Source: an uncultured Phycisphaerales bacterium
Lineage (GTDB): Bacteria > Planctomycetota > Phycisphaerae > Tepidisphaerales > Tepidisphaeraceae
DNA: 64,000 nt
Reading direction: 5' to 3'
NCBI GenBank assembly: GCA_963755915.1
Contig: CAVWLP010000003.1
Location: forward strand, 896,001-960,000
Shown: positions 1,146 to 30,892 of the stretch, one piece after another
How positions within the stretch are numbered: the stretch's first letter is position 1
Layout of the letters: the number at the start of each line of letters is the position of its first letter
Notes under the pieces: generated by a model
What the model was told of the DNA's origin: nothing
The model's database searches: none
What the model saw: only the letters and a program-made list of their open reading frames with translations
Program-made: the position numbers and the translations under genes

Positions 1146-3434
1146 ATGTCGGCTGCGCCCGCGGTAGAGTTTTCGTCGGTTGGACTGGGGCTGGCCGCGC
1201 TTGCCCTTGCCGCTTGCGCGATCGCCATCGCAATTGGTGCAAAATCCCCCTGCCTCTCGCCAGCCGCTGGCTTTTCGCGGTCGGCTTGTTGCTGCTCGCG
1301 CTTGCGGCCGCCGGACCTGTATGGTTCCGGACCAAACCCGGGCGCCTTGCCGTCATGGTCGATCTTTCCCCCAGCACCCGCGGCGCCCAGTTCCGCAACG
1401 CCTGGTTCCTCAAGCAGCGGATCACGCAGCTCGTCGGCAACTCGTCGTACCAAACCATCGCCTTCGCCTCGGAAAACCGCCCGCTGGATTTAAGCGGCGC
1501 CATCGAGGAGATGCCGGCGGATCGAACGATTTTCTCGCCTCCGCCTGTCGATGCGATTCTTCTTTTCAGCGATGCCCAGTTCCAGCTCCCGGAAAAATCG
1601 CCGCCGGTTTACGTGGCGATGGACGAGGGGCTGGAGAACGTCAAAGACGGCGCTGTGAAAAAGGTGGAGCTGCGGGGTGGATCGCTGGCCGCCACCATCT
1701 CCAACACCGGCGCGGATCGCGCCGCCTCTTTCCCTGGTTCGACGGCAACCGTGGGCCGGGGAACGATCGTTATCACGCGGCCCGCTCCTTCGGATTCGAC
1801 CATTGCGACGGTGAAGCTCAACGGCGGCGACTTTTGGCCGGAGAATGATTCGATCTCTACGGCCGTCCTCCCGCCCCCGGCGAGCGAGAAGTGGTGGGTT
1901 GGGGAAAATCCTCCCGACACCGACTGGCGAACCTTCGACGCCAACCAGTTGCCGGTGCTTGAACAGGAATATCTTTCACCGGCGGTCATCGTTTTGGCGA
2001 ACCAGCCTGCCGATCGTTTTTTGCCGGTGGGACTGGAGCGCCTGGCGCAATACGTGCGCGATCTGGGCGGGTCGCTGCTGATCGAAGGGGGCGACCATGC
2101 GTTCGGCGCGGGTGGATATGGGGGAACGATTCTTGAGCAATTGAGCCCGCTGGCGAGCTTTCCGCCGACGCCGACGACGCGCTGGGTTTTGCTCGCCGAT
2201 GGAAGCGGTTCGATGGCCAAGGGGACCGGCGGCGCATCGCCGTGGGCCGTGGCAACGAGCGCGATCATCAAGCTGCTTCCCGGCATTCCGCCTGCCGATC
2301 CCGTGCAGATCGGGCAGTTTTCGCAGGACGTAAAATGGTGGCTTCCCGCGGGCACTGCGGCCGATGCGGCCAGCGCCGCGCTTCCGCCGCCCGACGCTTA
2401 TCCGCATGGGCCGACGAACCTTGAAGCGGCGCTGAATGAGGTGGCGGACGATTCCAGCGCCGAAATGCGGACGGAGTTGATCCTGCTCTCGGATTGCGAC
2501 GCCACGATTTCGCATCCGGATCTTTTGTCCAACGTTCTGGCCCGCAAGCAGGTCCGGCTGCACGTGCTGGCGATCGGAGATGGGAGGCGCGCTGGGGATT
2601 ATTCGGGGGATTTGCCAGGGGACGGGGGGGGAAGTCATTGAGGAAAAGGATCCGGAAAAGTGGGCGCAGTCGCTGAAAAGATTGTCGCAGGCGGCGCTGC
2701 CGCCGCTGGTGGTGAATCAGCCGGTGATGGTGCGGTTTGAGAACGGGGCGGAGTCGATTTCGATAGCGCCAACGTCGCTGTGGAACCGGACGTGGGTGAA
2801 GCCGGATGCGCAGTGGTGGGCGGAATCGGATCTGGGGCAGCCGCTGGCGGGATTCTGGAAAATGGGGACGGGAACGGTGCTGGCGATTGGGTTTGGGGCG
2901 GATGATTCTTCACTGGAGGCGCTGGTGGGATTGATCGCGGAGAAGCCGCGCGATCCGCGGTTTTCGGTGAGGTGGGACCAGGATTCGCAGGCCCACCTGA
3001 CGGTCGACGCGGCCGGGAAGGGAGAGTTTCTCAATGGATTGGCGATTACGCTGGAGATTTCCGGGAGCGATGGGACGCAGACGCGGGCGCTGGAGCAGAC
3101 GGGGCCGGGGAGATACGAAGCGATGATTGAATCTTCGCGGGAGACGCGGATCGCGTCGGTGAAAGTCGGGGGCGAGACGATCGATCGGTCGGCAATTTCT
3201 GGACGCTATCCGCAGGAGTTTGACGCGCTGGGAAACGATCATGAAGCGATGCGGAAGTTGGCGCAGCAGAGCGGGGGCGAGGTGATCTGGCCGGGGAGTG
3301 CGGGGCCGATTGATTTTCACTGGCCGAAAGTTGGGGTGGCGCTGGGGCCGGGGATTTGTTTTTTGGGGTTGGGGTTTCTGGTGGCGGGGGTGGTGGTTTG
3401 GCGATTGAACGGGGGATTTTTGGGAAGTGAATGA
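1146..3434 (+). CDS. Membrane protein with VWA / glutamine-amidotransferase-like domains (two frameshifts)
   Basis: N-terminal TM segments, DLSPS and DGSGS MIDAS-like motifs, YVRDLGGSLLIEGG, C-terminal TM. ORFs 1146-, 1214-2641 and 2580-3434 join by frameshifts. Confidence 0.7.
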
Positions 3435-3540
3435 GCGGCTTGATGGGAGTTGGGTTTTGGGAGAAAATTGGGGGGAGATTTTTATCGGTTATGGTTGTTG
3501 TGACGAGGTGGACGCGGTTACTCGAATATCCATGAAAGGC

Positions 3541-3800
3541 TTCCCCGATCAACAAAAAAATTCTCCTCGCGAAAAGCGGTTACTTCTTTTTCATTCCGAG
3601 ACCTCTTCGTCCGTCTGCCGGCTGGTGACTGGCCTCTCGGCGGTCCATATATCCATTCGTGCTGGCCGGGCCCGATCAACAGCGTTTGGCCGAGCGGCAC
3701 ATGATCTCATCCGGCGCGGGCGGCCCAATTATAACGTGGCCTCTCGAGCCTGAATTGCTTCGGGCTCATGGCCAATTCGAGCCAGGGCTGGCCCACTTCC
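3541..3800 (-). ncRNA. Putative bridge/seek RNA of the IS110 element
   Basis: Two stem/internal-loop units whose loop strands match the target (3775-3781, 3727-3737) and the donor circle junction (3648-3656, 3701-3710). Boundaries approximate. Confidence 0.6.
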
Positions 3801-4928
3801 GGACGAGATCAGTTCCTTATGTCTTTTGCTTCCCGGTCTTGGGGGCGGCACCTCCTGATAATCCTGGTTGTTGTTCCACATTGAATAGACGATCCGACAT
3901 ATGCGGTTGGCGACGGTGATGTAGCCGCGACCGCGGTCCTGTTTGCCGTTGTTGGTACGGCGATTGAAAAGTTCTCGCAAAAAAGCGTCCCTTTGCACTG
4001 CCGAGTGGGCGGCCTGAATAAAGGCCCACTGAAGGGTAGTGCGACCGGCGTGACCAAGTCGGCGGCCGATGGGCTTGGCATCGCGATCTTCTCCGCTGTC
4101 GTCGGCCTGCGGCGCCAGCAGGCTGTATTGGAGCAGGCATCGACTGGAGGAGAAACGATCGATTCGGCCGATCTCGGCGACCAGCGTATATCCCAGCACG
4201 GTGGAGATGCCCGGCACGGTCATCAGGCGCTGGCCGATCTCCGATCGTTTCATGGTCGCGCGGAACCGGCGGGTGGCCCGTGCGATCAGGCGACGCAGAG
4301 AATCCAGCAGCATGAGATCTTCCTTGAGCGTCTGGCGTCCTGAGAGGCTCAGGGTCTTGTCCTCGGTGAGCAGCGACAGGAAACGCCGGCCCTGCACACC
4401 GAAGAGGTCGGTGAGCTCGCTGACGATTCCATGGCGGTGCAGCGTCGCGTGAATGCGATTTTTCAACTGCGTTTGAGCCTGAACGAGGGTCATCCGATGG
4501 CGCAGCAGCTCCCGCTGATCACGAATCTCGCGTGGGGCCAGCCAGACTTCCCACCAGCGCTTCATGATGCCTCGCTTAAATATCGGTTTTTCGTTCCAGA
4601 GTTCACTGAGCAGGTCGGCATCGACCTTGTTGCTCTTGGCGATCCCGCGTCCTTCCCGCCATGCCGCCACTTTGCGGCTCGAGGCCAGGTGGGGCTGCAT
4701 GTTCAAAATCTGCAACTCATCGCTGAGCCATCCCCAGCCAAATGTCGCTTCCAGGATCACCGGCGTGCCTCGCGGCCACTGAGCGATTCGCTCTCGAAGC
4801 TTTTGGCGATCCAGGTGATCCAGGCGTTCGCGAGCAATGACCTTCCCGGAAGCGTCGCGCAGACTGGCGGACGAGAACTTCCGATGGACGTCCAGCCCTA
4901 CCTGAACTACCTTGTCGTATAACTTCAT
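3729..4928 (-). CDS. IS110 family transposase/recombinase
   Basis: RuvC-like DEDD N-terminus (VGLDVH, ILEAT, KSNKVDA) and C-terminal Transposase_20-type segment (TVPGIS..LVAEIGRIDRF, DSGE serine, LQWAFIQAA). Confidence 0.95.
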   Translation of the reverse strand: MKLYDKVVQVGLDVHRKFSSASLRDASGKVIARERLDHLDRQKLRERIAQWPRGTPVILEATFGWGWLSDELQILNMQPHLASSRKVAAWREGRGIAKSNKVDADLLSELWNEKPIFKRGIMKRWWEVWLAPREIRDQRELLRHRMTLVQAQTQLKNRIHATLHRHGIVSELTDLFGVQGRRFLSLLTEDKTLSLSGRQTLKEDLMLLDSLRRLIARATRRFRATMKRSEIGQRLMTVPGISTVLGYTLVAEIGRIDRFSSSRCLLQYSLLAPQADDSGEDRDAKPIGRRLGHAGRTTLQWAFIQAAHSAVQRDAFLRELFNRRTNNGKQDRGRGYITVANRICRIVYSMWNNNQDYQEVPPPRPGSKRHKELISSGSGPALARIGHEPEAIQAREATL

Positions 4929-5004
4929 GGCTATCTCCTTGTGTGAATGACACCAAAACCGGAATGTTAACTTCCGGCAGGGAGATGGCCTTTCATGCGA
5001 TTAT

Positions 5005-5110
5005 AAAACGCGGTTCCGCCGCGATAACACGTGGCTGCCCCGGTGACGTTCGGTGCGACCTTGAGGTGTTGGGCGGGAAAGCGCCGTGCAAGCACGGCGG
5101 CTACACGGGG
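5005..5110. repeat. Dispersed ~150-bp repeat, copy A (left part 3476-3527, split by IS110), ending in a GTAG-type hairpin
   Basis: Shares GGTTCCGC..CAC.TGGCTGC.CCGGTGACGTT..GTGTTGGGCGGGAAAGCGCCGTGCAAGCACGGCGGCTACACGGGG with 12929-13030, and its 5' part with 30775-30892. Confidence 0.85.
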
Positions 5111-5135
5111 AGAAGCGGGGGACGGGGGCGGGGGA

Positions 5136-6338
5136 TCAGGTGATTGAATGCATCGTGACTTGGAGGATTTCTGCCGGGGCGTTGACGCGGAGGGGGAACC
5201 AGTTGCCTACGCCGTTGGAGACGATGAGGGTGGAGTTGGGTTTGTCGTAGCGGCCGGACCAGTATCGGAAGCGCAAGGGGCCGGCGCCGATGGATTTGGT
5301 GAGCATGATCTGCCCGCCGTGGGTGTGGCCGGAGATGACGAGGGGGATTTCGTGCTCGGCCGCGGTGTCCCAACTGTGGGGATGGTGGGCCATCATGATG
5401 GGAAAGAGTCCGGGGATGCGCAGGTCGGCGGTGTAGGCGACGGAGCCGGCGCGGAGGTATTCGTCGGTCCAGGTGGTGCCGAGGAGCTGGAACGCAGTGC
5501 CGCGGGTTTGGATGACGCTAGATTCATCGACAAGGATTTTTACGCCGCGGCGGCGGACGGATGCGACAAAGGCACCGGGACCCTGGATGCAGTCGTGATT
5601 TCCCAGGACCAGATAGACGCCGTCGCGGGAATCGAGGCGGAGGACCATGTCCAGGGCGCTGGGCAGATCGGCGCGGGAAATGTTGATCAGATCGCCGGGG
5701 AGGAGAACAAGGTCTGATTTCAGTCGGTTGCTGGCTTCGGCGATGTCGTCGAGCATTTTCTGGGAGGAGAATTCGCCGACGTGAGCATCGGCGATGACGG
5801 TGATGGTGTAGCCGTCGAGTTCTCTTGGCCAGGCGGGGAAGGCAAGGTCGTAGGATTTCACGCGGAATTTTCCGAGCTGGGAGGCGGCGGCGGCGCACAT
5901 CGAGGCGGTGGCGAGAGGGGCGGCGACGATGGCGGCGGAGGCGAGGAAGTTGCGGCGGGAGAGGCTTGCGGGCGGAGATGGGGGCTGCGGAGCCGGAGGC
6001 GTGGGAGAAAGGGCACGCCGTGCCCACTGGCGGATCGTGTGCGCGAAATACTCCAGCAGCAGCATAAGCACCAAAACGGGCAGGACGAGGAAGTGCCAGA
6101 TGAACTGGGCGCTGACAAGCCAGCGGGGCAGCGGGTCGCGGCGTCCGCCGAGCAGGGGATTTGCCAGGGCGGCGGTAACGCAGAAGCCGATCGCGAAAAT
6201 GGCCCAGAGGATGACGAACGTGCGCCAGTATTTTTGGCCGCGCATTCCGCGGGTGAGAACGTAGATTCGGCCTAGAACCAGAAGATCGAGGACGATGAAG
6301 ACGGAGAGGATGGAGGCGAAGAGATAGACGGCGCGCAT
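5136..6338 (-). CDS. Membrane-anchored metallophosphoesterase (YkuE/YaeI-like)
   Basis: N-terminal TMs, SRRNFL linker, DAH, GD, GNHD, HHP and GHTHGGQ motifs. Confidence 0.92.
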   Translation of the reverse strand: MRAVYLFASILSVFIVLDLLVLGRIYVLTRGMRGQKYWRTFVILWAIFAIGFCVTAALANPLLGGRRDPLPRWLVSAQFIWHFLVLPVLVLMLLLEYFAHTIRQWARRALSPTPPAPQPPSPPASLSRRNFLASAAIVAAPLATASMCAAAASQLGKFRVKSYDLAFPAWPRELDGYTITVIADAHVGEFSSQKMLDDIAEASNRLKSDLVLLPGDLINISRADLPSALDMVLRLDSRDGVYLVLGNHDCIQGPGAFVASVRRRGVKILVDESSVIQTRGTAFQLLGTTWTDEYLRAGSVAYTADLRIPGLFPIMMAHHPHSWDTAAEHEIPLVISGHTHGGQIMLTKSIGAGPLRFRYWSGRYDKPNSTLIVSNGVGNWFPLRVNAPAEILQVTMHSIT

Positions 6339-12928: not shown

Positions 12929-13030
12929 GGGTTCCGCGGCGATGGCACATGGCTGCTCCGGTGACGTTAGGGGCGGCTTTGACGTGTTGGGCGGGAAAGC
13001 GCCGTGCAAGCACGGCGGCTACACGGGGGA
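12929..13030. repeat. Dispersed repeat, copy B
   Basis: Near-identical to 5012-5110, including the GCCGTGC-AA-GCACGGC hairpin and CTAC. Confidence 0.85.
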
Positions 13031-30774: not shown

Positions 30775-30892
30775 AGATTTTATCGGTCACGGTTTTGGCA
30801 ACGAGAAGACGCGGTTACTCGTATAAAACAAGCGGTTCCGCCGCGGGAGCACATGGCTTGCCCTGGTGACGTTCGAAGTGGCCGTGAGGTGG
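30775..30892. repeat. Dispersed repeat, copy C (empty IS110 target site)
   Basis: GACGCGGTTACTCGTATAAAACAAGCGGTTCCGCCGCG joins the two sequences that flank the IS110 at 3511-3527 and 5005-5023. Confidence 0.85.

Follow-up and report, generated by a model that had tools for sequence, protein, structure and literature searches.

The DNA analysed here, called the window below, is a stretch of 64,000 nucleotides (nt) from an uncultured Phycisphaerales bacterium (assembly GCA_963755915.1, contig CAVWLP010000003.1, positions 896,001 to 960,000); coordinates are those of the window. On its minus strand lies an insertion sequence (IS) of 1473 bp (3529..5001), accompanied by one TA core (TA at 3527-3528 and 5002-5003). 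The element carries a transposase open reading frame (ORF) of 399 amino acids (aa; 3729..4928, minus strand), placed by Pfam and NCBIfam among the RNA-guided (DEDD) transposases of the IS110 family, and a predicted bridge/seek RNA of ~200 nt (3607..3806, minus strand) made of a candidate closing helix, a target-binding arm and a donor arm. A first-pass annotation, made from the letters alone, had proposed an IS110/IS1111 bridge or seek RNA at this place; the proposal is borne out by the covariation of loop and flanks, by compensatory changes in the stems and by a held-out element, L074. We estimate at about 0.88 the probability that 3529-5001 is an active or recently active IS1111-type IS whose 3' part gives this RNA. 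The element is a member, without IS name, of the already known RNA-guided IS110/IS1111 kind.

The insertion sequence and its target repeat

The transposase matches PF01548 (E = 7.4e-9) and PF02371 (E = 1.6e-13) in Pfam, and its residues 10-355 match the NCBIfam model NF033542 "IS110 family RNA-guided transposase" with 161.5 bits for a cutoff of 140. The IS110 family has a conserved SG within a C-terminal G--P----S(t)G motif (PMC11187229, section 6); the translation reads LLAPQADDSG, with L replacing the first G. Among 72,556 plasmid records the closest named transposases (IS4321 family, ISAtu7 and IS1328) are below 30% identity, the IS4321-family gene reaching 27% over 92% of the query, and the sequence match to IS621 (PDB 8wt6) is confined to the C-terminal domain (E = 7e-4). 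The length of 399 aa, versus 330-350 aa typical of the IS1111 group, is due to the extension of the ORF into the RNA. Among 8,000 candidates scored, more than 1,100 are protein relatives at E <= 1e-20, none with an IS name, while the 400 other genomes sampled across the phylum hold no close protein relative at E <= 1e-40. An Rfam scan of 3300-5300, with E up to 10, gave no credible match; the two hits listed lie inside the tnp gene, far under their gathering scores.

For comparison we used two contigs of metagenome-assembled genomes, 14 metagenome contigs (~12 usable) and genomes of the same bacterial family, where 10 of the 140 others have a protein match. A search by nhmmer with the 3' region of the window returned 23 loci. 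Duplicate rows were dropped before the counts (L043 = L031, L058 = L032, L061 = L057, L062 = L060); L032 and L044 represent a single element found at two sites, as do L045 and L046. The relatives compared have 50-90% protein identity, and the structure counts below refer to 17 distinct sequences.

The boundaries rest on three empty sites, which read CTCGAATATAAAACGCGGTTCC, and on TA being the sole dinucleotide common to both junctions in the relatives. Written in the orientation of the transposase, their left junctions read (target)-TA-ATC(N)CATGAAAGGC throughout, the base preceding TA being A, C, G or T depending on the element, and their right junctions read GCCTTTCATGGA-TA-(target) with one exception, L041, which has CA for TA. 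The window by itself leaves the crossover ambiguous within TAT, and the relatives resolve its position: because only TA recurs at both junctions, the core is TA and the element is 3529-5001. An AT core, our first boundary reading, was dropped, as L054, L044 and L048 have GT, CT or TT on the left and AT on the right. The first-pass annotation had spoken of a new recombinase-RNA pair with a non-CT core; the core is indeed non-CT, while "new" holds for this member only. AT, GT and TT cores have been tested in IS621 by engineering (PMC11208160, section 10), so a non-CT core is not new in principle.

Subterminal inverted repeats were read directly at both ends and are conserved in the relatives. 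The left one, GCCTTTCATG on the plus strand (4988..4997), is set 4 nt plus the core from the left terminus; the right one, CATGAAAGGC on the plus strand (3531..3540), is set 2 nt plus the core from the right terminus. Their 10 bp fall inside the range of 7-17 bp of the IS1111 group (PMC11208160, section 12). The non-coding ends measure 73 nt on the left and, counted from the stop codon, 200 nt on the right, with the guide-RNA region downstream of tnp. Such a layout, with subterminal inverted repeats and the guide in the right end, is that given for IS1111-type elements in section 6 of PMC11187229 and section 12 of PMC11208160.

The genome assembly (6.6 Mb, three contigs) holds four copies of the element at four loci. 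A four-way alignment has no internal difference and the proteins are identical; the flanks alone differ. All four copies are inserted at the identical position and in the identical orientation in a dispersed host repeat. In the window the host flank at the right IS end (3514..3528) consists of the right-target half-site CTCGAA and the core TA, and that at the left IS end (5002..5017) of the core TA and the left-target half-site TAAAAC, followed by GCGGTTCC of the repeat. The empty sites are equal to left flank, TA and right flank, with no duplication past the shared core. The repeat has 50 matches in the genome, ten uninterrupted copies of which were read, and a scan with the pattern CTCG[AT]AT-N5-9-GCGGTTCC found 32 uninterrupted repeat cores. 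In three of these 32 the spacer is ATAAAAC, which reproduces exactly the left and right flanks of the occupied sites; they are perfect empty targets.

The host repeat itself is ~150 bp long and intergenic, with the consensus ...TTTTATCGGTTACGGTTTGGGTGACGAG..GCGG...CTCGAAT-N6-8-GCGGTTCCGCCGCGGGA.CACATGGCTG.... It surrounds the IS at 3452-3528 and 5004-5100, and partial copies lie in the window at 12930-13018 and 30822-30891. Repeat copies with the ATAAAAC spacer host all four insertions; there are 7 such sites, including the occupied ones. One contig from an RNA library (run X1) bridges window positions 3507 and 4998, the two repeat halves being joined by 14 other letters. It is an uninterrupted repeat copy from a related organism, and the host repeat may itself be transcribed, or be carried as DNA in that library. 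The repeat could be REP- or MITE-like or an RNA gene; an Rfam scan of one of its copies gave no match.

The predicted RNA and its target loop

The minimum free energy fold of 3530-3800 (minus strand), computed on the single sequence, has an inner hairpin and an outer stem separated by a symmetric internal loop. The target loop of the first-pass annotation was thus placed correctly to within 1-2 nt, but measures 10x10 and not 11x11. Its 5' strand is UGGCUCGAAU (3775..3784) and its 3' strand is CGUUAUAAUU (3727..3736), the latter composed of left target (UUA), core (UA) and the first bases of the IS left end. The outer stem (helix 2) pairs 3785..3795 with 3717..3726, and the inner stem with its variable hairpin (helices 3 and 4) occupies 3737..3774, all on the minus strand. 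The energy of folding is uninformative; the case therefore rests on the relatives.

Helix 2 is paired in 100% of cells (17 sequences) and has three pairs changed on both sides. In the stem of the inner hairpin four of the four counted pairs are changed on both sides, and its length varies (e.g. by +18 nt in L045). Over the whole RNA 92.5% of cells are paired, versus 28-46% when the partners are slid by 1-3 columns, nine pairs are changed on both sides, and the covariation score was reached in none of 500 shuffles. The candidate closing helix (3800-3806/3607-3613) is paired in 86% of cells with no both-side changes, and is proposed here tentatively. A covariance model built on the RNA matches exactly the four IS copies in the genome, with no orphan RNA genes, and has matches in 11 of the 140 other genomes of the family.

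The 5' strand of the loop is the reverse complement of the right flank. In the window the guide CUCGAAU faces the flank ATTCGAG; this identity with 3521-3527, claimed in the first-pass annotation, holds, and three of the four copies match over 9-10 nt. The corresponding guide and flank are CUCGUAU and ATACGAG in L031, AUCGCAU and ATGCGAT in L041, CCACCCUA and TAGGGTGG in both L054 and L060, CCGCCCCU and AGGGGCGG in L035, AAUGCG and CGCATT in L048, AAAGCG and CGCTTT in L047, ACGCGC and GCGCGT in L049, and GCCGGCUA and TAGCCGGC in L055. The 16 distinct guide/flank pairs were reduced to one representative for each of 12 guide types, the rows lacking the right junction (L032, L057, L050 and L036) being excluded. 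The summed longest common substring of strand and flank is 86, for a permuted mean of 44.5, a value reached in 0 of 100,000 permutations. A match count in fixed register had failed on the subgroup of the window because this subgroup is offset by one base, and was replaced by the longest common substring.

The 3' strand of the loop is identical to the left junction, i.e. left target, TA core and first IS bases. The first-pass annotation had matched it at 7 of 9 positions to the target; it is better read as seven contiguous identities out of seven between UUAUAAU and the left junction TTATAAT, which is made of TTA, the core TA and then AT of the IS. Other elements give UCAUAAU for TCATAAT (L041), UCCUAAU for TCCTAAT (L044), AUUUGUAA for ATTTGTAA (L054), AGUUUAAU for AGTTTAAT (L049) and CGUUUAAU for CGTTTAAT (L050). 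Among 13 types the match at seven variable positions sums to 48, for a mean of 28.9 (1 of 100,000 permutations), and the run length counted outward from the core to 35, for a mean of 8.8 (0 of 100,000). Omitting the odd locus L031 alters these results little. L074, found later with the covariance model and present in none of the tests, has eight contiguous matches; compared with its close relative L060 it differs at two guide positions, and its flank is changed to match. Thus the covariation of loop and insertion site that the first-pass annotation had set as a check in homologues was found for both strands. With respect to the top strand, the 5' strand is complementary (to ATTCGAG) and the 3' strand identical (to TTATAAT). 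The proposal that the target loop is a guide varying with its target is strongly supported by this comparison.

Several points weigh against the reading of the locus as an RNA-guided IS. Shuffled sequence reaches folding energies just as good (z = 0.07, and 1.15 for a shorter piece). The window copy matches its right target over no more than 7 nt, and of its match to the left target only 3 nt belong to the variable part. L060, a broken copy, fits its left junction at only one of the seven variable positions, and there is no fit between guide and left flank in L031 (run length 0). Four repeat sites in the genome with the spacer ATAACAG, which match the 3' strand at one more base, are all empty; either the numbers are too small or the choice of the left target depends on something beyond simple contiguous pairing. 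The permutations take no account of how the elements are related; the loop-flank signal is drawn from at least eight clearly different target words and not from one clade. Finally, support for the RNA as a transcript is limited to contigs of relatives in RNA libraries, which come without RNA ends and may stem from DNA carry-over.

The first two points, z-scores near zero and matches of 7 nt on each strand of the window copy, are what would be expected if fold and matches were chance in a GC-rich sequence. The first-pass annotation had left chance as an option, and folding energy alone does not go beyond it. The comparative evidence does: permutation results of 0 and 1 in 100,000, the loss of pairing when partners are slid and the conservation in 23 loci contradict an origin by chance, to which we give practically no weight. 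A regulatory element of the transposase message (translational, for stability, or a terminator) would account for the overlap of the structure with the stop codon and for the U-run downstream of it at 3554-3560. Such an element would not explain why the two loop strands follow the DNA on the two sides of each insertion, and we hold this explanation to be very improbable.

A further repeat reported within the element deserves mention. The word GCGGTTACT does occur at 3576-3584 and at 3514-3522 as the first-pass annotation had stated, but the relatives do not conserve its internal copy. We treat it as chance, for that reason and because the other three copies of the IS have a different flank at this position.

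Some loci depart from the general pattern. In L031 (1380-1450 and 2890-2960; same as L043 and L034), an 83%-identical relative, the left end lacks the ATC(N) extension and borders on at least 46 nt that repeat the right flank perfectly in inverted orientation, so that the element lies between inverted half-repeats. This arrangement could be an aberrant product of end-to-end recombination or an assembly artefact. L077 (1420-1620, genome G009) is a decayed derivative in which only ~80 nt, and no transposase gene, separate the left end (inverted repeat included) from a target-arm-like sequence downstream; UAA is gone from its 3' loop. In addition, a U stands opposite a target C, a possible rU:dG wobble, at the left junction of L040, L046 and L032 and at the right target of L044 and L045, which suggests that the pairing of guide and target tolerates wobble.

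Probable donor arm, predicted expression and overlap with the transposase gene

The donor arm (minus strand throughout) is closed by an outer stem, helix 5, between 3711..3716 and 3616..3621. It is paired in 98% of cells, and its pair 115-229 is AU in 9 of 17 sequences and GC in 8, never unpaired. Inside the arm a small hairpin with a GAGA loop (3627..3645, helices 7 and 8) is 84-100% paired with little covariation, which gives it moderate support; with this hairpin the donor region is a multiloop. An inner donor stem had been proposed at 3659-3664/3695-3700: three of its base pairs (GUG/CAC) persist across the relatives, but two other pairs are unpaired in 5 and 6 of 17.

For the top strand of the left IS end and the core, the candidate guide is the 5' strand of the arm, AUGAGAUCAU (3701..3710). 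It agrees with their reverse complement at 8 of 10 positions, exactly the score that the first-pass annotation had given for the other donor arm; in L041 and L045, where the left end is ATCTCATG, the agreement rises to 9 of 10. The 3' strand, GAAUGGAUAUAUG (3646..3658), contains GAAUGGAUAU, which corresponds to the right IS end (AUGGA), the core (UA) and the base with which the right target begins. AAUGGAU stands unchanged in all 17 sequences, and the right IS end likewise does not vary; in 11 of the 14 elements with a right junction, the base that follows the core is also the first of the right target. Here one earlier claim has to be withdrawn: TATATCCAT was said to match the circle junction at 9 of 9 positions, a figure in which the shared dinucleotide was counted twice. 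The match is 7 of 9 to the circle and 8 of 9 to the integrated right junction. In both arms, target and donor, the 3' strand extends beyond the core into the partner DNA.

The agreement is less complete than in the target loop. The base after the core disagrees with the flank in three of the 14 elements, the L047-L049 clade among the disagreements. The single variable base of the left end (G, T, A or C) is not tracked by the donor 5' strand, which in the L047-L050 clade fits the left end poorly (~5/9). For these last two reasons we rate the donor pairing as likely but unproven. Moreover, the RNAalifold consensus pairs CCGG of the donor stem with the 5' end of the RNA instead. We preferred the separate donor-arm stem to this pairing of 3799-3806 with CCGGAUGA because pair 115-229 covaries; the RNAalifold pairing could represent an alternative conformer, since both pairings use the invariant CCGG. 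Of the donor loop first proposed, the separate arm, the covarying outer stem and the strands matching both IS ends thus stand, while its pairing is only partly supported.

A rival reading is a seekRNA with a target loop only, in which the protein reads the IS ends through the subterminal inverted repeats and the donor-like matches are coincidental or scaffold. The donor ends are almost invariant, so that no covariation test is possible, and the lack of tracking and the poor fit just described point the same way, as does ISEc11, for which an 82-nt seekRNA sufficed and correct target flanks around the donor were needed (PMC11187229, sections 10 and 14). On the other hand, all 17 sequences contain AAUGGAUA unchanged, and this word is the same as the right end plus core, which do not vary either; an exact 8-mer is expected ~0.003 times by chance in ~200 nt, and the next base follows the right target in most elements, as given above. 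The strands also flank an inner stem within a covarying outer stem, which is the geometry of a donor loop, and the donor bases of IS1111 orthologues are placed in multiloops by Durrant et al. (PMC11208160, section 12). On balance we find a target-only RNA unlikely, without dismissing it, and retain the two-armed RNA.

The covariance model also matched the donor arm alone at or near contig ends (G532:C108 13440-13538, G532:C24 1-95 and G022:C170 17593-17686). These are probably IS copies that broke the assemblies.

The promoter of the element is expected at the circle junction. Its -35 box would be TTGATC at 3547..3552 (minus strand), read directly, next to the U-run at 3554-3560. When the two ends are joined on paper, TTGATC is followed by a 16-nt spacer and by GATAAT across the junction, and is preceded by the U-run; most relatives keep GTTGA(C/T) with a T-run before it. 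Section 7 of PMC11187229 describes junction promoters for the family. As to the RNA itself, contigs from two rhizosphere RNA libraries, from relatives 90-95% alike, cover 3514-3921 and 3586-3861. They constitute weak support for an RNA; gaps in the cover over 4314-4799 are uninformative.

The RNA starts at 3806 and the stop codon UAA of the transposase, at 3729-3731, lies in the 3' strand of the target loop, so that the two overlap by 26 codons including the stop, close to the ~25 codons first noted. The stop is formed by the core UA and the next A of the strand. When the transposase frame is followed in the 17 distinct elements, nine stop at this UAA and four at a UGA of the inner stem, 13-26 nt before it; in the other four the frame ends upstream of the RNA or is not followable, some being broken copies. 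A PPPRPG motif is found in 94 of the best 120 protein relatives (of more than 1,100), and at least 83 of these 94 proteins have tails translated from the RNA start, in three frames (45, 32 and 6). The homologous nucleotides are read as ISSGSGPA, SRSGTGQP or LVRERTSP. The overlap is thus a property of the lineage, and since three frames are used across sublineages there is no conserved peptide.

This bears on the view that 3729-3806 is conserved as a functional C-terminal peptide of the transposase rather than as RNA. The frame kept open to the shared UAA in nine elements and to the slightly earlier UGA in four, the tails translated from the RNA in most PPPRPG homologues and the insertion in L045, whose 18 nt keep the frame, would fit it. 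The use of three frames does not, nor do the compensatory changes of the helices and loop bases that follow the flanking DNA, and the curated family profile stops at residue 355. We regard a conserved peptide as highly unlikely, and keep the reading of this region as RNA.

A check for selection on the open frame found the RNA poor in stop codons in more than one frame, so the overlap may be passive. One may speculate, with low confidence, that a guide inside the reading frame couples termination of translation to the folding or processing of the guide, or loads the protein on its own RNA (cis preference). If so, ribosomes finishing the transposase must unwind the guide, retargeting of the left guide would rewrite the final codons, and the persistence of the overlap in three frames would reflect selection for the overlap itself and not for a peptide. 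No statement that a target loop lies inside a coding sequence was found in the literature searched, a scope that leaves aside the supplementary figures of PMC11187229 and PMC11208160.

Relation to known systems and proposed working

That IS1111-type elements carry guide RNAs in their right end is known from earlier work (PMC11208160, section 12; PMC11187229). The present element shares these features with the seekRNA elements ISEc11, ISPa11, ISKpn4 and ISPst6 (Siddiquee et al. 2024, PMC11187229): a guide in the longer non-coding region after tnp, subterminal inverted repeats with the longer extension at the left end, site-specific insertion with no added bases (ISPa11 also in a host repeat, REP), the top-strand match coming first and a promoter expected at the circle junction. 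According to section 9 of that paper, IS1111-type seekRNAs have the top-strand match 5' of the bottom-strand match. Section 12 of PMC11208160 adds that donor-binding bases lie in multiloops in many IS1111 orthologues. Among the differences, the present protein has 399 aa, whereas 330-350 aa are quoted for the family (PMC11187229), and the present element is known from sequence alone. For ISEc11 the experiments of sections 10 and 14 are those mentioned above, in which an 82-nt seekRNA with target matches sufficed for transposition provided that correct target flanks surrounded the donor.

The bridge RNA of IS621 (Durrant et al. 2024, PMC11208160; Hiraizumi et al. 2024, PMC11208158) likewise has two arms with two strands each, directed to opposite DNA strands on either side of a 2-nt core, and serves a recombinase of the same DEDD plus Ser family. 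Its handshake guides (PMC11208158, section 11) resemble the present 3' strands running past the core. Unlike that of IS621, which lies in the left end before tnp, the present RNA lies in the right end after tnp (PMC11208160); the order of the strand matches is reversed, and the handshake-like extensions are on the bottom-strand guides (PMC11208158). Furthermore the core is TA in place of CT, the donor region forms a multiloop, the inverted repeats have a length of 10 bp, and the long guide is on the right-target side (7-10 nt) with a short one on the left (3-5 nt plus core), all of which differ from IS621 (PMC11208160).

IS4321/IS5075, also of the IS1111 group, were compared through a plasmid copy. 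Here too an inverted repeat, GGTCACTCCC, is set several bases from the left end and ~3 from the right, and tnp is followed by a right end of ~250 nt. The right end of the copy read has no sequence likeness to the present RNA; the protein has 334 aa, and no overlap of ORF and RNA was seen in this copy, whose RNA is not mapped. To go by the title of a 2003 paper by Partridge and Hall, IS4321/IS5075 reportedly target the inverted repeats of the Tn21 family.

Taken together with these systems, the element may work as follows. The RNA would be transcribed with, or after, the transposase message from the 3' part of the element, then processed and bound by the transposase. Its first arm would present the 10x10 internal loop, the two strands of which together would aim the DEDD/Ser recombinase at CTCGAA-TA-TAAAAC in the dispersed host repeat. 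The second arm, closed by its own stem and multiloop-shaped, would present AUGAGAUCA and AUGGA-UA-U, matching the left and right IS ends around the TA core and thereby holding the circular donor. Exchange at the TA core would insert the element with no further duplication. In the circle, the junction would read from the right end ...CATGGA-TA-ATCGCATG... into the left end, and the -35/-10 promoter so formed (TTGATC, 16 nt, GATAAT) would drive both transposase and RNA.

Elsewhere in the window, two ORFs on one strand, 1214-2641 and 2580-3434, overlap at 2580-2641 near eight consecutive G (~2624-2631). The pair has the look of a single gene interrupted by a frameshift or by a sequencing error in the homopolymer.

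The finding leaves the known working of such elements unchanged. It adds an uncharacterised and apparently abundant soil and peat lineage of IS1111-type RNA-guided recombinases, whose 10x10 target loop is very regular, whose core is TA and in which natural retargeting to at least eight different target words is visible. It may provide an extra orthologue for recombinase engineering. The lineage also offers a comparative data set for the less understood guide geometry of IS1111 elements, that is, the reversed strand order, the long right and short left guides and the multiloop donor arm.

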